A DNA stretch of 18,508 bases, taken from IMG/VR virus record IMGVR_UViG_2563366928_000009. One strand, written 5' to 3'. Origin of the DNA: a virus. Its lineage: Duplodnaviria > Heunggongvirae > Uroviricota > Caudoviricetes. Of this stretch, positions 1 through 8,813 are shown one piece after another. The notes beneath the pieces were generated by a model. The model was not told the origin of the DNA, did not search any database, and saw nothing but the letters and a program-made list of their open reading frames with translations. Every line of letters begins with the position of its first letter. Positions within the stretch are counted from its first letter, which is position 1. A program made the position numbers and the translations under genes.

Positions 1-1267
1 GCTTCAGAATGAAATTATATGGACGAAAAATCCCTCTATGCCCATATCCTTAACCTGACTGCACCATGGCAGGTTAAATCCCTTACCCTCGATGAAAATG
101 CAGGTTCCGTTACTGTTACAGTCGGAATTGCTGAAAATACTCAGTTAACCTGTCCGACCTGCAGGAAATCCTGTTCTGTTCACGATCACCGACATCGTAA
201 ATGGCGCCACCTTGATACCTGCCAGTTCATGACATTAGTAGAAGCCGATGTTCCCCGCGTTATGTGCCCGGAGCATGGCTGCCAGACTCTGCCTGTACCG
301 TGGGCAGGTTCCGGCAGTCGGTACACTCTGCTGTTCGAATCGTTCGTGCTCTCATGGCTTAAAATCAGCACCGTTGATGCGGTCAGAAAACAACTTAAAC
401 TTAGCTGGAATGCCGTTGACGGCATCATGACCCGCGCGGTTAAGCGAGGCCTGTCGCGGATTAAAAAGCCTTTATCAGTGCGTCATATGAATGTAGACGA
501 AGTCGCCTTTAAAAAAGGGCATAGGTATATAACCGTGGTATCTGATCGCGACGGGCGGGCACTGGCATTAACCGATGATCGTGGCACAGAGAGTCTTGCC
601 AGCTATCTCCGTTCGCTTACTGACAGTCAGTTGTTGGCCATCAAAACACTGTCGATGGACATGAATGCGGGCTATATAAGAGCAGCGCGTATCCATTTAC
701 CCAATGCGGTCGAGAAAATCGCCTTCGATCGCTTCCATGTGGCGAAGCAACTGGGCGAAGTGGTTGATAAAACCCGCCAGAATGAACATCCGCACCTCCC
801 TGTTGAAAGTCGTCGTCAGGCCAAAGGTACCCGCTTCCTGTGGCAGTACAGCGACAAATGGATGACTGAGTCCCGGCAGGAAAAGCTGATGTGGTTGCGG
901 GAACAGATGCAACAGACAAGCCAGTGCTGGACACTGAAAGAGCTGGCAAAAAATATCTGGGATCGCCCCTGGAGCACAGAACGCAGGAATGACTGGTTGC
1001 AGTGGATATCGCTGGCGTCTGAATGTGATGTGCCGATGATGAAAAACGCAGCGAAAACCATTAAAAAACGGTTATACGGAATACTGAATGCAATGCGTCA
1101 TCGCGTCTCGAATGGAAATGCGGAGGCGCTGAACAGCAAGATCAGACTGCTGAGGATAAAGGCCAGGGGATACCGAAACCGGGAACGCTTTAAACTGGGA
1201 GTTATGTTCCACTATGGGAAACTGAATATGGCGTACTGAGTCTTCCCACCATGATCGGGGAAGACCC
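1..1267 (+). mobile_element. ISL3-family insertion sequence, partial; left end lies outside the window and the right end is not resolved
   Basis: Contains the ISL3-like transposase gene at 19-1239. Only 18 bp precede the start codon, so the left inverted repeat is cut off. An 8-bp-stem inverted repeat (1240-1247 pairing with 1258-1265) follows the stop codon. No terminal inverted repeat could be identified by eye. Confidence 0.45.
19..1239 (+). CDS. ISL3-family transposase (N-terminal zinc finger plus DDE domain)
   Basis: 406-aa ORF with ATG at 19 and TGA at 1237-1239. N-terminal Cys/His cluster (CPTCRKSC...HDHRH...CPEHGC) resembles the zf-ISL3 finger. Central motifs DEVAFKKGHRYITVVSD, LSMDMNAGYI and AFDRFHVAKQLGEVVDKTRQNE match the ISL3 DDE transposase pattern as I remember it. 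Confidence 0.85.
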   Translation: MDEKSLYAHILNLTAPWQVKSLTLDENAGSVTVTVGIAENTQLTCPTCRKSCSVHDHRHRKWRHLDTCQFMTLVEADVPRVMCPEHGCQTLPVPWAGSGSRYTLLFESFVLSWLKISTVDAVRKQLKLSWNAVDGIMTRAVKRGLSRIKKPLSVRHMNVDEVAFKKGHRYITVVSDRDGRALALTDDRGTESLASYLRSLTDSQLLAIKTLSMDMNAGYIRAARIHLPNAVEKIAFDRFHVAKQLGEVVDKTRQNEHPHLPVESRRQAKGTRFLWQYSDKWMTESRQEKLMWLREQMQQTSQCWTLKELAKNIWDRPWSTERRNDWLQWISLASECDVPMMKNAAKTIKKRLYGILNAMRHRVSNGNAEALNSKIRLLRIKARGYRNRERFKLGVMFHYGKLNMAY

Positions 1268-1294
1268 ACATAACTACAGTTACAGGAGGGGGTT

Positions 1295-1543
1295 ATGCGT
1301 GTTGAGATCTGTATCGCTAAAGAAAAAATCAGCAAAATGCCGAAAGGTTCTGTTCCTGCTCTGCAGCAAGAAATGCTGCGCCGCATAGGTAAGCGATATG
1401 ACGATGCAGATGTGATCGTTAAATCTGCCAGCAATGATGGACTCACCATTTTAAGAGCCGTCGATAAAGAATCAGCACTGGAGTTCGTACAGGAAACACT
1501 ACAGGAAGTCTGGCAAACCGCGGACGACTGGTTTATGCAATAA
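1295..1543 (+). CDS. dinI: DinI-like DNA-damage-inducible protein
   Basis: 82-aa ORF with AGGAGG at 1284-1289, ATG at 1295 and TAA at 1541-1543. The sequence [11 protein letters not shown]...[12 protein letters not shown] follows the DinI family pattern (MRIEV.IAK...ETWESADDWF). Size and acidic C-terminus fit. Confidence 0.85.
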
Positions 1544-1634
1544 CGGGATCATAATCACTGTAATGACCTGTTTTGTATGACATTCTTAAAAGGCATAACA
1601 ACGAGCTTGTCGTTTCAAGCGACTTCTTCTGGTT

Positions 1635-1661
1635 GGGGAGCCTGAGTGCTCCCCTTTTTTT
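1635..1661 (+). terminator. Rho-independent terminator downstream of dinI
   Basis: GGGGAGC (1635-1641), loop CTGAGT, GCTCCCC (1648-1654), then seven T (1655-1661). On the minus strand the hairpin is not followed by a U-tract, so it is unidirectional. Confidence 0.6.
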
Positions 1662-1957
1662 CAGCTAAAAATCAGCATACAGCCATACAATCCCGCACAG
1701 GCCACCACCGGCACCACAAAATCCATCAGACTGGCCACATTCCACACACGCGGATCAAAACCGCCCCACCACGGCATGTTCTGTCTGTGACCATCACCAA
1801 AACGCTTAATCCAGCGATATTCTGCCTGGGTATGTTCTCGGGCAATAAAGAACGTACAACCCGCTATCGCTCCGTAAACCCAGTCACCGGTAATGCACCC
1901 GACCAGCCCCTGCACGGCTACTGCACAAATTGCATGAAGTATCGGCGTGATATCCAT
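1661..1957 (-). CDS. small hydrophobic protein (98 aa, two predicted transmembrane segments, possible lipobox LVGC); function unknown
   Basis: ATG at 1957 preceded by a GGGGAG Shine-Dalgarno; TGA at 1661-1663. It starts 9 nt after the stop of the upstream 92-aa gene. Hydrophobic N-terminal (ILHAICAVAVQGLVGCITGDWVYGAIAGCTFFIA) and C-terminal (LMDFVVPVVACAGLYGCMLIFS) segments. I do not recognise a family. Confidence 0.55.
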   Translation of the reverse strand: MDITPILHAICAVAVQGLVGCITGDWVYGAIAGCTFFIAREHTQAEYRWIKRFGDGHRQNMPWWGGFDPRVWNVASLMDFVVPVVACAGLYGCMLIFS

Positions 1958-1966
1958 CTGCTCCCC

Positions 1967-2245
1967 TTAAAACCACTCCCTGAGCGGGCGCTCTGGTGTA
2001 ACCACCCACTCACGGAACACGGATTCATCAAAGCCATCGTCAAGAAGACGAATATTAACAAAGTACCCTTCGTCTCGCGTGTATTCAGGCTCCCCGTCAG
2101 CAGAAACACCTGACTCACTGAACGTAAAACCAATCTCATCAACCAGAATGGCATTCTGCAGCTCTTCGTCCTCTTCCCAGTTAAGTTTCCTGAGAAATGC
2201 CCTGAAATCTGCTTTATCACTGAAACGCAACGTGAAATCTCTCAC
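1967..2245 (-). CDS. small acidic protein (92 aa) translationally coupled to the tail fiber gene; function unknown, possibly a fiber chaperone
   Basis: GTG start at 2245 overlaps the tail fiber TGA (GTGA overlap). A GGGGAGG Shine-Dalgarno lies 7 nt upstream. Open frame of 92 codons with no internal Met. Rich in Asp/Glu. Not similar to lambda Tfa by eye. Confidence 0.5.
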   Translation of the reverse strand: MRDFTLRFSDKADFRAFLRKLNWEEDEELQNAILVDEIGFTFSESGVSADGEPEYTRDEGYFVNIRLLDDGFDESVFREWVVTPERPLREWF

Positions 2246-4302
2246 TCCACAACCTCCCCAAGCTGCGCATCTGTTAGCTCTTTATGCCAGAGACGAAAAT
2301 TCCTCACATGCCCAAATAAATGGCGTAATCCTGCTGTAGTTTGTCCACCAATGCGAATGATTGCTGTACTCCGGATATATTCCCATGTGGTTTTTGTTTC
2401 GCTGGATATACGCCCGTTACTTACTGCACATGTAGACTGATCTGACTTTACACGCATCCCCATAACCATTTTTTTCAACGATGCGTTTTCGTTAACACGC
2501 CTATTTGATCCACCAATATCGCAATAAGGAAATCCGTCTGGCCCATCTGCCGAAGATCCGAAGCCAAGAATAATAGCCGCTCCGGTTTGATGACCGCCGG
2601 TATCAAAAACACGTGGCGCTGCATTTGGCGTTTTATACCAGTTCTTATGTACCTCACAAAGAACCGTAAAAGGAAGATTATAAAGATTATTCTTAATCGG
2701 AACTGTAACCATATCGCTTGCGCGCGTCGCCGCCGTCGTTCCTGATATAATAAAAGATGATACACACGAACCATCCTCAACCTGAGGGGTGGCCAGATAA
2801 ATATAGTCACCAGATTCAACGACACCACCTTTTTTTGGTGCGTATTGTATTGCAGAGGTTATGTAAGTTTCTTTACTTGCTTGAATCGTTGCCTCTACAA
2901 AAATCCAGCCCGTAGCTTCATCTTTGCTAACTCGTGCGGTGAGCCTGTCGGCAGCTACACCGGTGATTTCAACCAATAAAGACCGCGTATTAACAATGGC
3001 ATATCCAAGATTAGATGAAGCGCTGCCATCGAAGGCTTCAAACCTGATCCTTAACAGGAGTTCCAAATCCGTTTTAAATCTGCACGATGTCGTCACACAC
3101 TTATTATCGCCTGATACATCGACAGCCCCCGAGGTTGAAACTACTGCCATATTAAGGGTTGTACTTTGCCCAATTAATGATTCATTACAAACAAACTTTC
3201 CATAAGTAAAACCAAAACTATCAGTTCCAACCTCAGCGACATTCATATTTGCAGATTTACCCCAAGAAGCTGGAGTTGCTGAATTCAACATGTAGTTGGT
3301 TCGCTGACCTTCAATCAATAAACCTTCTTTTTCAAATCGTGGCTCATTAATTTCCGCCGTTTTCAGTTCGCCAGATTTGTTGATATATGTTGCCGTTGAT
3401 GCGCGACTGAAATTAACCTGTTTATCACTGGCAACCTGAACCACATTATCACCAATCTTCACTTTTTTATAACCCGGAGAATAGCCCGTAATCATATCCA
3501 GCGAATCATTAAAGGGTATCCACACATCCGGCAGCGGCTGTAAAACATATCTGTACGGCTCTGCTGTCTGGTTTGCGTATTCTCTGGCAGCATCTTCACT
3601 TGCTTTTGCTGCCGTCTGGCTTGCTGCCGATGCTTTCGCCGAGTTCGCCGCCGCTGTTTCGCTCACCTTTGCGTTGGCTTCACTGTCTTTGGCATTCGTC
3701 TCACTGGTTTTCGCTGCCGTCTGGCTGGATTTTGCGTTTTTTTCGCTGGCCTTTGTGGCTGTCTCGCTATTTTTCGCGCTGGTTTCTGATTTTTTGGCTG
3801 CTGTCGCGGAGTTTGCCGATGCAGTCTGCGAGGCCGCTGCCGCCTGTGCGCTGTTAGCTGCATTCGTTTCTGAGGTTTTCGCCGCATTCTTCGATGAGGC
3901 TGCTGCCGTTTCGGATTTCTTTGCCGCCGCTGCACTCTGTGATGACGCTCCGGCATGACGTGCCACTTCATTCACCATCAGCTCAAAACGGCGCAGTGCC
4001 TCCGGACGAACATCATCCTCCGTCATGGCGCCGAGAAAATCATTCAGCGTACCTGGTCTGGAACCTTCATAGACGGTAATGGTCCCGGCATGTGAAGGCG
4101 GAAAATCTTCAACCAGCAGGGTGACGCTGTACTGGCCATACTCAACATCCATGCTGTAACGCCCGGCTTCATCCGGATTTTCAGAGGCCACCGTGTTCAC
4201 CACCACCGTGCTGCTGGTCCGTCTGGCCTTCAGCACAATGGTGCAGTTCTGTACTGGTTTTCCTGTGCCATCTTTAAGCACGCCAGAAATTTTTACTGTC
4301 AT
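2242..4302 (-). CDS. stf: side tail fiber protein: lambda Stf-like N-terminus, Ala/Ser/Thr/Lys-rich shaft, divergent C-terminal domain
   Basis: 686-aa ORF, ATG at 4302. N-terminus MTVKISGVLKDGTGKPVQNCTIVLKARR...GRYSMDVEYGQYSV...PPSHAGTITVYE is near-identical in pattern to the lambda Stf N-terminus. The middle is low-complexity repeats (KKSETAA, KTSETNA). The C-terminal roughly 400 aa is unrelated to lambda Stf; its ending (FRLWHKELTDAQLGEVVE) is reminiscent of concanavalin/LamG-like folds, but that is memory-based. Confidence 0.9.
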   Translation of the reverse strand: MTVKISGVLKDGTGKPVQNCTIVLKARRTSSTVVVNTVASENPDEAGRYSMDVEYGQYSVTLLVEDFPPSHAGTITVYEGSRPGTLNDFLGAMTEDDVRPEALRRFELMVNEVARHAGASSQSAAAAKKSETAAASSKNAAKTSETNAANSAQAAAASQTASANSATAAKKSETSAKNSETATKASEKNAKSSQTAAKTSETNAKDSEANAKVSETAAANSAKASAASQTAAKASEDAAREYANQTAEPYRYVLQPLPDVWIPFNDSLDMITGYSPGYKKVKIGDNVVQVASDKQVNFSRASTATYINKSGELKTAEINEPRFEKEGLLIEGQRTNYMLNSATPASWGKSANMNVAEVGTDSFGFTYGKFVCNESLIGQSTTLNMAVVSTSGAVDVSGDNKCVTTSCRFKTDLELLLRIRFEAFDGSASSNLGYAIVNTRSLLVEITGVAADRLTARVSKDEATGWIFVEATIQASKETYITSAIQYAPKKGGVVESGDYIYLATPQVEDGSCVSSFIISGTTAATRASDMVTVPIKNNLYNLPFTVLCEVHKNWYKTPNAAPRVFDTGGHQTGAAIILGFGSSADGPDGFPYCDIGGSNRRVNENASLKKMVMGMRVKSDQSTCAVSNGRISSETKTTWEYIRSTAIIRIGGQTTAGLRHLFGHVRNFRLWHKELTDAQLGEVVE
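3590..3960. repeat. imperfect short tandem repeats inside the tail fiber gene (encode the Ala/Ser/Thr/Lys-rich shaft)
   Basis: Recurring GCTGCC/GTTTCG/TTTGC-type units on the plus strand, corresponding to repeated K-[ST]-SET-xA peptide motifs. Confidence 0.5.
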
Positions 4303-4313
4303 ACTTTTCCACC

Positions 4314-4348
4314 AATAAAAAAAGCCCGCAGCAGTGACGCCACGGGCT
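4314..4348 (-). terminator. terminator-like hairpin plus U-tract between lom and the tail fiber gene
   Basis: On the minus strand: AGCCCG, 14-nt loop, CGGGCT, then TTTTTTTATT, followed directly by the tail fiber RBS (GGTGGA) and ATG. Stem is only 6 bp. Confidence 0.5.
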
Positions 4349-4453
4349 TCAGGACAGTGTAACTTTACGTTTCCTCAAACGCAGTTCACCCCATAAGGCG
4401 GATGAACCTGCGTATCATAACAATATTTACAGAAGATAAATCGGCGTCTGTTG

Positions 4454-5053
4454 TCAGAAACGGTATCCGATACCAACAATAAATGCATCCGTTCGCCAGT
4501 CGCCACTACCGGAACCTTCATAAGCAAGGTCAATGGCCACGGATTCGGTCGGGTTAAACTGCACGCCAGCCCCCCACGCCAGAGAGGTATTGCTGTGGCG
4601 ACCGTCATCACTTCCGGTCAGCACGTCGTGCTTTTTCCCCTTGTTGTCAGTTACGCGGAGATAATCCCCGGAGAAAGTCGACACACGGCTGTAAGCCACA
4701 CCCGCCATCGCATACGCGCTGAACCATTCATTCACGCGCACAGACGGCCCCGCCATTACGCTGAACCAGCGGTTACGCACGGAATCTTCATGCCAGCGGG
4801 TATCGCTGTAGTGCGTTTTTTGCTCATCCTCAGCATTGGCATAACTGAAGGACGTAATCAGCCCCAGCGCGTCCGTAAACTCATAACGGTATTTCACGTT
4901 AATCCCGTTCAGATTATCGCTGCCGGGAGCGTTCGTACGGGCATGAAGATACCCTGCGCTCAGTGTGGACTGATGTTCAGACGCCCATGCAGGCGCACTG
5001 GATACGGACAGACAGATGGCTGCGGACAAAATGGCTGCACAAACTTTACGCAT
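4454..5053 (-). CDS. lom: Lom outer membrane protein (Ail/Lom/PagC family beta-barrel)
   Basis: 199-aa ORF with ATG at 5053 and a GAGAGG RBS. Signal peptide MRKVCAAILSAAICLSVSSAPAWA. C-terminus AIDLAYEGSGSGDWRTDAFIVGIGYRF closely matches lambda Lom (VVDIAYEGSGSGDWRTDGFIVGVGYKF). Confidence 0.92.
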   Translation of the reverse strand: MRKVCAAILSAAICLSVSSAPAWASEHQSTLSAGYLHARTNAPGSDNLNGINVKYRYEFTDALGLITSFSYANAEDEQKTHYSDTRWHEDSVRNRWFSVMAGPSVRVNEWFSAYAMAGVAYSRVSTFSGDYLRVTDNKGKKHDVLTGSDDGRHSNTSLAWGAGVQFNPTESVAIDLAYEGSGSGDWRTDAFIVGIGYRF

Positions 5054-5074
5054 AATTACCTCTCGCTTTTCTGC

Positions 5075-5101
5075 AATAAAAAAGGCGCCATTTCTGGCGC
5101 C
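5075..5101 (-). terminator. Rho-independent terminator between J and lom
   Basis: On the minus strand: GGCGCC, loop AGAAAT, GGCGCC, then TTTTTTATT. It sits 20 nt after the J stop, immediately before the lom RBS. Confidence 0.6.
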
Positions 5102-5120
5102 CGTATTGGGGTTATAAAAT

Positions 5121-8100
5121 TCAGCTAATCGTGATGCCTGCAGTGGCTTTCTTCATCACAACAACCAGCAAATCGCTGATACTTGCTGTGGGATACCAGC
5201 CATTTACCCACCATGCTGATACAGAAAACTCCAGCGTCATGTGGCCGCGACCAGCAGGCATATCAATAACACCACTGTAAACCAGCGTATTATCCAGCGC
5301 GGTACGGTTATAAATTTCAGCACCGTTTTTCCGTACTATCAGGCGGCATGACGAATAAATATCGTTATTCTCCCGCTCATGTCTGGCACCGCTGAATGCC
5401 ACCGCCGGAATAACAATTTGCCGGTCAAACGGCTGATCGTCATAAACCCTGACGGTAATGGTCCCTGATGGCCACCTCTCCGGTGCACGGGAGTCACGGG
5501 GGAAAGCCTTACCCACTGTTTTAACGAGATCGCCTTCAATCTGGTTTGCAGACAGTTTCCCTCTGATGACACAGTTCTCGTTAATGGTGACATTATTGAG
5601 CGTGCCGGTATTCGCCGTGATGGCTCCACTGATATCCGCATTGCGGGCTGCCAGCCTGCCATCCGGCGTCAGGGAAAACGTAGGAGGATTGCCGGATGAC
5701 GTGATGCTCACCGCAAACAGTCGCTTCAGGAACACGTCGTTCATGAACAGCTGATTCCCCTGCGCCACAAACAGCGGCGTGGTGTTGCCATTCTCCGGGG
5801 TAATCATCGCGATACGGTCCGCCTGCAGCAGAATACTGCTCAGCGTCTGACCATCAACATCCTCAATCCCCGCACCAATCCCGGCCACATAGGGAATACC
5901 GTTTTTTGTTTTCTGCACCTTCAGCATATACATGGCATTCAGCTCATTGCGCGTGTCTGACTGAACCCGCTGGATTTGCTGTATGGTCACGGCCTGGTCA
6001 CCCAGTTTTTTATCCGTGGTCGAGGTAATTTCACTCCCTTTTTTATCCACGTACTGGCGGACCTGTGCTATCTGTCGGGCATTTTCTGACTGCCCCTGGC
6101 TGACAGTCTGTGAGATTTCACTGCTCACCCGGTCCACTTTCTGGCTCACCTGCGCGATGGCCAGTGTCTGGTCCTCATTCTTTTTCGCAACCAGCTGCGT
6201 GAGGCTGTTTTCCGCCTCCCCGATTTTCCGGGTCACTTCTGCGATATCCGTGTCCATCCGCTGACGGATGTCTTCTTCCAGTTGCGTGACCTCCGTACGC
6301 AGCGCTGAAGCATCAATGCGCTCTTTCAGTGCCTGGCCCAGAAGCGTCTCATCTATCAGACCACGGAAAAATTCCAGATACCCTTTTGCATCATTGCTGG
6401 CCTGCCCGCTGGCTTCCACAAATGCAGACTTGCCCACCAGGTTGACACTGCGCACATAAAACCAGAAATCCGTCCCCGGCTTAATCCGATCGCCCTGGAC
6501 AGTCCACTGACTGCCGGTCCCCAGATAACGGGCAGATTTTTCCACCTGTGCCGTGTTCGTGATGCGTTTTTCCGAAAACCAGAACTCAAACTGCACCGTC
6601 GGGTCATACACCGCCAGCACCGGTACCGCCGTTATCTGAAAATACCCCGGCGTCAGCTCAATGGTGGCGGGTTTTGCAGGCGCGTTAATCCGGAAGGTGG
6701 TGGTCGCAGGTTCGCCCTGCTGGCCGTAGCTGTTAATGGCCCGCACCGTCAGGGTGTATTCCCCCAGCGGCAGACCACTGAAACGGTGCTCCGTGTCTGC
6801 GGTGATGGCGGTGCTCACCAGACGGCTGTCTTCTCCGCTTCCGCTGGTCAGACGCAGACTGAAGCGCACACCCTTCACCACCCGCGGCGTGTCCCATTTC
6901 GCCTGTGCCAGATACTGACCGTCAGCTGCACTCACCTCCACCGTCAGGTGCTGCACTGCCGGTGGGATAACGCTGTTCAGGCTGCCTGACTGCGGCTCAA
7001 AGCTGGCCCCGTTATCCACAATGGCTTCTTTTTCCGGTACGTGCTGCACCGCCGTGATGGCGAACGTGCCGTCCGTGTTTTCCCGGATGGAGACACAGCG
7101 GAACAGGCGACGACGCAGTGACGGCAGGGAGAGTCCCCACACCCCGTATGTCTCCACACCATCCGGCAGGGTGCTGACCTGTATCCGGTCAGGCGCGGGG
7201 TGTGCGGTGATGGCCACGCTCGCCGGCTTACCGCTGCCGTTAATCAGATTAACAGTGGCCGTGCCGGTCTCCGGCAGTGTCACCTCCCGGTCCAGCGTCA
7301 GGGTACGGCTGGCGGCATCGATGGACAGGACACGTCCGCCGGTCATGGTCCCGGCATAGTCGTTATCACAGATTTCAATGATGTCACCGGGTGTGTGACG
7401 CAGCCCCTGTGACCCAAGCGTGAAATCCACCGTCTGCGTTTCCAGCAGTTCGGTCTTTATCACCCACAGCCCGGCACGGTGGGCCTGACCGCGGCTGGTA
7501 CAGCCGAACGCGTCCATCTTCAGCAGGTTGCATCCGTAGCGCAGTATGGCTTCCGGGTCTTCCACCAGTTCCGTGGAGGTCTGCCAGCCGTTCTGCGGGT
7601 CGGTGTAATTCACCTCCACTGCCGTGTGCCGGTCCTTCAGGGCACTGAAGCTGTAGCGGAAACCCACGCCGTTATCATCCACCACCACATCGCTGTTGGT
7701 GTACGGCCACACCACATCCGACGGGCGGTCCTGAACGAACGTCAGCGTCTGACCGTTCCATACCGGCATACAGCGCATCGCAGAGCAGAAATCACTGAGA
7801 ACGTCCCACGCCTTACGCTGTTGTGCCAGGTACGCATAAAAGGTCATCCGCGGCTCGGTCCCCCCGAAACCATCCGGGACCGTCTGGTCGCAGTACTGCC
7901 CGATGGCATACAGCGCCCACTTGTCCACATCCGCCGCCCCCAGACGTTTTCCCATGCCGTAGCGCGGGTGAGTCAGCATGTCCCACAGACACCAGGCCGG
8001 GTTGTTGCTGTATGCCGGTTTCAGGCTGCCGTCCCAGATACCACTGTACGTGCGTTTTTCCGGGTCATAGTTTGACGGCACCTGGATGATGCGACCGCGG

Positions 8101-8813
8101 ATATGGTAGTTCACCGTCATCTGCTGGCCGCCGAACTGCTCCGCATCCACCTGCAGCCCCACAATGGCCGTGTTCGGGTAGCACTGTTTCACATCGATGA
8201 TTTCGGTGTATGACGACCACAGCGTCTTATTCTGCAGCTGGTCCGTGGTGCTGTCCGCCGTCTCCCTGACCATCCGGATGTTAAAGGGCCGGGGAGGCAG
8301 ATTATCCAGAATCACCGAGGCCAGGAACTGCGAGGTGGTCTTGCCGTTAATGGTGACATCCTTTTCCGTCACCCAGCGGCCATTACGCTGTAACTGAATC
8401 AGAATCCGGACAGAGGAAGGATTACGGTCGCCCTTTGACGTGGTCTGCACCAGTGACTGCACCCCGAAGGTAACCCGCAGGCGGTCAATGTTCGCGGACG
8501 TAATGGTGCGCGTCACCGGTTTTGCCTTCGTCACTTCCACGCCCAGTCCGGTTTCAGCTCCGGAGGACTCAAAGCCTTCCGGTGGTGTCTGCTCCTGCTC
8601 CCCGGCACGCCAGACCGCGGTCACACCGTGTATCACGGGATTACCGTCCGTGTCCGTCAGCGGGGTTTTGTTCACCAGGATACTCTGCAGTCCCTTCACC
8701 GGACCTTCTATCGGTCCCTCACCAATCGCATCAATCACACTCATCATCTGCGTGGATTTGAGATTATCCTTCGCCTCACGAGGCGTGTGTGCCTTACCGC
8801 CACCTTTTCCCAT
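5121..8813 (-). CDS. J: tail tip host-specificity protein J (central tail fiber)
   Basis: 1230-aa ORF, ATG at 8813 with a GGGGAAGG RBS. Long stretches are near-identical to lambda J ([22 protein letters not shown]..., [50 protein letters not shown]). It has a longer coiled-coil segment than lambda J and a diverged C-terminal receptor-binding region. Confidence 0.95.

Follow-up and report, generated by a model that had tools for sequence, protein, structure and literature searches.

How can a side tail fibre that is held on its phage as in lambda end in a receptor-binding part unrelated to that of lambda, with no tfa gene behind it? The question is raised by the stf-like gene in an 18,508-nucleotide stretch of viral DNA, IMG/VR record IMGVR_UViG_2563366928_000009, which is called here, at its full length, the window. 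The DNA is that of a lambdoid E. coli prophage, of which the window covers the tail end, with the tail genes on the minus strand. The gene product is probably a modular side fibre made up of a collar anchor, a short shaft and a glycan-binding head of two lobes, the head being a mobile cassette that is transferred together with a small neighbouring gene, here named p92. The parts of the fibre gene are as follows.

2242 to 4302, minus strand: stf-like side tail fibre gene, an open reading frame of 686 amino acids with an ATG start, matching PHROG 1419 at an E-value of 0.
3952 to 4302, minus strand (residues 1 to 117): lambda-type collar or anchor domain and linker, assigned from PF08400 and identity to lambda orf-401.
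3568 to 3951, minus strand (residues 118 to 245): shaft rich in Ala, Ser, Lys and Thr, presumed from composition and periodicity to be a trimeric coiled coil.
3283 to 3567, minus strand (residues 246 to 340): neck of the head, nearly invariant (PLPDVWIPFNDSLDM ... EPRFE ... GLLIEGQRTN), with the lowest column entropy.
2719 to 3318, minus strand (residues 329 to 528): first beta-sandwich, of head-spike-fibre type with a hypervariable core, recognised by NF048003.
2245 to 2715, minus strand (residues 530 to 686): predicted second beta-sandwich lobe, hypervariable in the core and conserved in the tail (GGQT..G.RHLFGH.RN.R.W..L.D.Q), from a strand-rich model and column entropy.

The attachment end of the fibre is that of lambda. 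The Pfam family PF08400 (phage_tail_N, 'Prophage tail fibre N-terminal') covers residues 1 to 131 with an E-value of 1.3e-67. Identity to lambda orf-401 is 85.3% over residues 1 to 116 (tblastn) and 73% over residues 1 to 158 (BLASTP), which bears out the first-pass annotation, where roughly the first 120 residues had been likened to lambda Stf. The likeness extends to the DNA, which is 81.7% identical to lambda over window positions 4327 to 3914, beginning 25 nucleotides 5' of the ATG and ending near codon 130. Past 3914 the DNA match to lambda ends, except for one 30-nucleotide repeat match. Because the match breaks off near codon 130, a recombination joint can be placed at the start of the shaft.

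The function of this end can be read from a solved structure. In Ur-lambda, cryo-electron microscopy shows residues 1-94 of Stf as a collar domain of beta-sheet and helix; twelve copies ring the junction of gpV and gpM, and beyond the collar come a short linker and then a coiled coil of three chains (PMC12617516). Given the 85% identity, the same anchor role can be assigned with confidence, and homology shows the first 95 or so residues to clamp the fibre on the tail tip.

The shaft was likewise described correctly at first reading, as a repetitive region rich in Ala, Ser, Thr and Lys. Residues 118 to 245 consist of 34% Ala, 19% Ser, 12% Lys and 10% Thr, match themselves with a period of 7 or 14 residues, and resemble the lambda shaft at the level of the repeats (BLASTP against orf-401). 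From this composition, this periodicity and the Ur-lambda structure, the segment is presumed to form a short trimeric coiled coil.

Beyond the shaft, the resemblance to lambda is over. Residues 246 to 686 do not align with lambda orf-314 or with the remainder of orf-401 (best E-value 6), so that no collinear likeness over the full length was found and the C-terminal 400 or so residues had rightly been called unrelated to lambda Stf. Their relatives lie elsewhere. Residues 329 to 528 score 50.3 bits with the NCBIfam model NF048003, 'phage head spike fiber domain', whose cutoff is 36. When 14 homologues were made into a profile and compared with PDB sequences, the RcGTA head spike fibre Rcc01080 matched with an E-value of 1.2e-15, and RcapMu gp58 aligns to the same first beta-sandwich with 29% identity (E-value 9e-14, BLASTP). 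The C-terminus of Gp22 from phage IrisVonRoten, which is 62% identical, has been termed a 'galectin-like domain', projecting from the fibre and possibly serving as an additional receptor-binding domain (BASEL 2025, PMC11990801).

An AlphaFold2 model of the head was computed as a monomer from an alignment of 18 rows spanning 41 to 96% identity, which limits confidence in the model. Within it, the model's confidence score (pLDDT) is 80-92 for the first sandwich (model residues 100-265) and 55-77 for the second lobe, whereas the first 96 residues, which form the neck, score below 50. Structure comparison found a two-sheet jelly-roll beta-sandwich of the concanavalin-A-like lectin/glucanase fold. 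Model and homology together show the head as a conserved neck followed by two concanavalin-A-like beta-sandwich lobes. The neck alone among the parts of the head stays unfolded in the monomer model, which fits a segment that may need trimerisation or a partner. The earlier suggestion of a lectin- or LamG-like sandwich therefore stands at the level of the fold, through the model, NF048003 and the homology to RcGTA; by sequence, the head belongs to no curated lectin family, and its second lobe (residues 530 to 686), scanned alone, had no match in Pfam.

Variation is unevenly distributed along the head. Over 94 distinct heads, column entropy marks two hypervariable stretches, 346-500 and 560-645, set among three conserved ones: the nearly invariant neck (256-340), a joint (506-535) and the tail (656-686). 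Individual head sequences are visibly mosaic. Such a layout would be the pattern expected for a glycan-recognition cassette under diversifying exchange.

Instead of only binding O-antigen or capsule, the head could be an enzyme that cuts through it, either a glycanase or a polysaccharide lyase, with the glucanase variant of the concanavalin-A-like fold. Charged and polar residues that are invariant from the coliphages to RcapMu, in the motifs EPRFE, LLIEGQRTN, PQxExG and TRAxD, could be taken in this sense. This explanation is nevertheless improbable. The head matches no family of glycoside hydrolases or lyases in Pfam or NCBIfam, enzyme matches rank below binding modules in score, and in RcGTA the homologue is reported to be a fibre for binding, the degrading enzyme being a separate tailspike (10.64898/2026.07.19.739414).

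The same head is found on many other fibres. Heads of about 440 residues with 36-100% identity are joined to lambda-type PF08400 anchors, among others in phage 21, the PhiR phages, the ev phages and mEp460. They are also found on P2-type fibre N-termini (PF12571/PF03406), on unrelated N-termini of T5-like (IrisVonRoten, SelmaRatti), T1-like (tunus) and Nonagvirus (JenP2) phages, and on a 1478-residue rV5-like fibre (EmilHeitz). In all, the head occurs in 230 phage records, and related DNA is present in 1250 of 5426 complete E. coli genomes (about 23%). Receptor-binding domain swapping, which had been proposed from the window alone, is shown by the presence of one head on five kinds of anchor. 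The head is a mobile cassette that recombines among unrelated phage groups.

Two IMG/VR contigs, L028 and L029, carry heads 89-91% identical to the one in the window on a wholly different N-terminal anchor (MIYTTGTIAVSGNTV...). Five records named 'Campylobacter phage' (MG065692, MG065676, MG065635, MG065652 and MG065653) hold coliphage-type fibres with this head at 42-75% identity; the records resemble E. coli phage assemblies that have been mislabelled or contaminated.

What has become of tfa? As first claimed, the gene is missing: the best tblastn match of lambda Tfa in the whole window has an E-value of 0.4, which is at chance level. The place directly behind the fibre gene is taken by p92.

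1967 to 2245, minus strand: p92, an acidic alpha/beta protein of 92 amino acids with an isoelectric point of 4.25, candidate head-specific chaperone or adaptor.
2253 to 2259, minus strand: GGGGAGG, a Shine-Dalgarno-like sequence for p92 read from the sequence, inside the 3' end of stf and 8 nucleotides upstream of the GTG.

The GTG start of p92 overlaps the stop codon of stf (GTGA), and the equivalent arrangement in phage 21 carries the annotation of a ribosome-binding site. The protein belongs to PHROG 1361, 'unknown function'. It has no match of any kind in Pfam or NCBIfam, and neither p92 nor the following gene, p98, matches a Tfa family in these collections.

Evidence that p92 belongs to the head is provided by its distribution. 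Homologues stand at the same position in 187 phage records, which include all head-bearing groups. To measure the linkage, 166 loci were fetched, of which 157 contain a near-complete head and at least 290 nucleotides downstream. A p92 homologue starts within 40 nucleotides of the head end in 156 of the 157, representing 103 distinct combinations of head and p92; since some contigs entered the set twice, the raw number makes the loci look more independent than they are. The sole exception is a T5-like contig. Its relatives have p92 proteins only 27-28% identical, and a homologue there may lie below detection. Among 1.84 billion proteins, the p92 family forms 53 representative clusters, nearly all of them stand-alone proteins of about 90 amino acids.

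Another account makes p92 a passenger at the 3' end of the cassette. It would then be unrelated to the fibre, a moron, exclusion or immunity gene that hitch-hikes with the head, and the lack of a recognised chaperone signature in p92 would agree with it. The account is very improbable, however: the adjacency of p92 is strict in temperate phages and in strictly lytic ones (T5-like, rV5-like, T1-like) alike, p92 overlaps the stf stop codon, and in many genomes it is placed between two structural fibre genes.

The linked gene is better read as a partner of the fibre. It is encoded directly after the receptor-binding end and is inherited with it, and its position, translational coupling and co-inheritance match exactly those of the fibre chaperones Tfa, gp38 and P2 G. 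That p92 is a true fibre accessory factor, either a chaperone or a retained adaptor, is put forward as a serious if tentative candidate explanation. From the strict linkage of the genes, p92 would do the job of Tfa, aiding the folding or assembly of the head, and it might remain bound afterwards.

Pairwise comparisons suggest where the two proteins might meet. Identity between p92 proteins correlates with identity in the first 80 or so head residues (246-325, window 3328-3567), 1.2 kilobases away, with a Spearman rho of 0.67-0.74. The correlation with the adjacent second lobe is weaker, at 0.27-0.44. This is contrary to physical linkage alone and hints at a relationship between p92 and the neck. 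The pairs are not independent, and lineage-specific flanks around an exchanged core would look similar, so the correlation may reflect either co-adaptation or such flanks.

Several candidate relatives of p92 were rejected. No structural relatives were found, matches to PDB sequences were at chance level (E-value 1), and p92 does not align with RcapMu gp57 or the RcGTA spike base protein. Giant proteins of PKD, Ig and ConA-like (GH43_C2) repeats, 1200-2700 amino acids long (P0274, P0278, P0280, P0283 and P0304), match p92 in 5-8 short stretches each. These stretches resemble a GYxVxVxV strand motif, and the matches were treated as spurious.

Many relatives have one more fibre gene behind p92. 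This distal fibre has 574 amino acids in IrisVonRoten and 582 in SelmaRatti, and in JenP2 it is 'endosialidase-like' with 348. Sibling lambdoid prophages have a fibre gene of 346 amino acids between their p92 and p98 homologues (L041 5611-6651; also L039 and L042-L081), which ends in a typical C-terminal intramolecular-chaperone motif. The trio of the L041 type is possibly a two-part, perhaps branched, side fibre on a lambda-type tail. The window shares with such lateral fibres of two parts the proximal fibre that ends in the head and the p92 homologue that follows. After p92 no distal fibre gene is found in the window, in phage 21 or in PhiR40_1, where a p98-type gene comes directly next. The head is therefore the end of the fibre.

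1661 to 1957, minus strand: p98, a membrane protein of 98 amino acids outside the head module, PHROG 1443, starting 9 nucleotides after p92.

The hydrophobic segments of p98 are residues 3-27 and 78-98, and it has a weak match to Phage_holin_8 (E-value 0.003). It is nearly confined to lambdoid phages, where it follows fibre genes of whatever type, and in many of these phages an extra fibre gene lies between p92 and p98. Because its placement is independent of fibre type, p98 is not part of the cassette. It is possibly a lysogenic-conversion or exclusion gene. The idea that tfa had been replaced by different downstream genes was right in that tfa is gone and that the first gene, p92, is the companion of the head; it does not extend to the second gene. 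More generally, the first-pass annotation held for the fibre, overlooked p92 and did not foresee the distal second fibre of the relatives.

The distal fibres allow another reading of the whole module. The head might be mainly a docking platform for a second fibre, with p92 as a structural adaptor. Here, where the distal gene is lost, the fibre would then be truncated and non-functional, or would borrow the distal fibre of another prophage. A fibre gene does stand directly after p92 in T5-like phages, Nonagvirus, T1-like phages and many lambdoid relatives, and in IrisVonRoten the distal fibre attaches to the proximal fibre that bears the galectin-like domain (BASEL 2025, PMC11990801). In addition, p92 variants track the distant neck (rho 0.74) more closely than the adjacent lobe (rho 0.27-0.44). 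The form with two genes is nevertheless kept in the viable, classical phage 21 and in many prophages at 99-100% identity, which argues that it is maintained and functional. Moreover, p92 is present with the head regardless of the third gene, and both lobes are hypervariable, as is expected of a receptor-binding surface. A docking platform is therefore unlikely as the main role of the head.

The reading of the head as a binding module leads to the nature of its ligand. The receptor is probably not OmpC but a surface polysaccharide, most likely O-antigen, capsule or a similar glycan. This reading draws on three points: the RcGTA homologue binds capsule, the cores of both lobes are hypervariable, and lateral fibres generally have such a role. 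For RcGTA, the ligand of the head spike fibre is the capsular polysaccharide of Rhodobacter capsulatus: binding of a fluorescent fusion was 100% on wild-type cells and about 4% on a capsule-less mutant (PMC10218006, PMC7296036). The head would provide quick, reversible initial attachment, after which J would engage its own receptor. With no distal fibre gene, the lectin-like head itself would be the terminal receptor-binding element, as in phage 21.

Some observations weigh against this picture of a glycan-binding head with a dedicated partner. No binding experiment was found for this head in any coliphage, and the literature on phage 21 and the PhiR phages yielded no functional data on this fibre. 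The RcGTA homologue acts as a monomer, whereas here three heads would have to sit on a presumably trimeric shaft. The head model is only moderately confident (mean pLDDT 62) and leaves the neck unfolded. No Pfam lectin or LamG family matched the head when it was scanned whole and in three pieces at E-values up to 10. As for p92, it is unlike any known fibre chaperone (Tfa/Caudo_TAP, gp38, gp57A) in sequence or fold. Finally, the heads of L028 and L029, 89-91% identical to the one in the window, are paired with p92 proteins of the T5-like type that are only 25% identical. Any contact between head and p92 is therefore not highly allele-specific and must use residues that are invariant in both partners.

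Modules of the same kind have been described before. In phage 21 (OL657228, CPT_21_22 to CPT_21_24) and PhiR40_1 (PV340560), the same three genes follow J in the same order: a fibre of 686 amino acids, a 92-residue protein whose gene overlaps the stop codon, and a membrane protein of about 97 amino acids. The product annotated in PhiR40_1 as 'side tail fiber protein' is 99% identical to the stf product of the window, and the phage 21 side tail fibre is 63% identical. There is no difference of substance between these loci and the window, which has in addition ISEc53 beyond dinI and lom between J and stf.

Lambda, in the form of Ur-lambda with Stf and Tfa, shares the collar, the genome position and a coiled-coil shaft rich in Ala, Ser and Thr. 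Lambda Stf has a long, hinged shaft and a gp37-like, OmpC-binding distal domain that needs Tfa, whereas the fibre here has a short shaft, a double beta-sandwich and p92 in place of tfa. A gp37-like distal receptor-binding region, corresponding to the orf-314 part, is absent from it.

In IrisVonRoten (Bas32), whose Gp22 has the 62% identical head, the p92 homologue is bas32_0023 and likewise overlaps the stop codon of the fibre gene. The anchor of that phage is of T5 type, and a third gene encodes a T-shaped distal fibre of 574 amino acids (Gp24); both features differ from the window. Rcc01080 of RcGTA and gp58 of RcapMu have a homologous first beta-sandwich and several motifs in common with the head. 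Rcc01080 is a capsid-borne monomer whose N-terminal Leu-Gly peptide fixes it in a pentameric base protein. It lacks the second lobe, and the small gene that partners it, located upstream, has no relation to p92. Attachment of this kind, by a terminal peptide to a base protein encoded alongside, does not apply in the window, where the domain is fused to a tail-fibre shaft. The branched fibres LtfA/LtfB of DT57C were rejected as the closest system, as they have autocleaving chaperone domains, joints of phiEco32 type and another head.

The surroundings of the fibre gene are those of a common prophage. The neighbouring genes are as follows.

5121 to 8813, minus strand: J, 1230 amino acids.
4454 to 5053, minus strand: lom, an Ail/Lom outer-membrane protein.
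1295 to 1543, plus strand: dinI-like gene.
19 to 1239, plus strand: ISL3-family transposase open reading frame, within an element at 14-1267 annotated as ISEc53.

The order on the minus strand is J, lom, stf, with stf at the end of the tail operon. J is about 100 amino acids longer than lambda J (1230 against 1132), and the two are 57.6% identical. The receptor specificity of this central fibre probably also differs from LamB. Lom is only 43% identical to lambda Lom, and in phage 21 the gene is missing from the interval between J and stf. Window positions 1268-5200, which run from dinI through stf and lom into the last part of J, have 99.4-99.5% identity to prophages of many human E. coli isolates. 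An ISEc53 at the site next to dinI was found in one of 5426 complete E. coli genomes, that of strain B20123 from seawater. PhiR40_1 has its integrase gene at the position matching ISEc53, and ISEc53 may interrupt or displace int here.

The fibre itself is thus a common, previously annotated and partly published prophage module. It holds no novelty and is of little interest in its own right. The only under-described component of the module is p92. Falling somewhat short of probable, but worth stating, is the view that p92 (PHROG 1361) represents an undescribed class of accessory protein that serves the double-lectin head in particular, either in its assembly or as a retained adaptor contacting the invariant neck, which would make the head portable across fibres of lambda, P2, T5, T1 and rV5 type.

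Because head and p92 go together in nature, grafts of the head onto lambda-based delivery particles should bring p92 along; chimeric Stf libraries of such design have already been used (10.1101/2025.02.28.640725). The succession of an invariant neck, two hypervariable lobes and a conserved tail offers natural junctions for swaps of specificity. The same layout provides a defined target for learning which E. coli glycans these prophages recognise.

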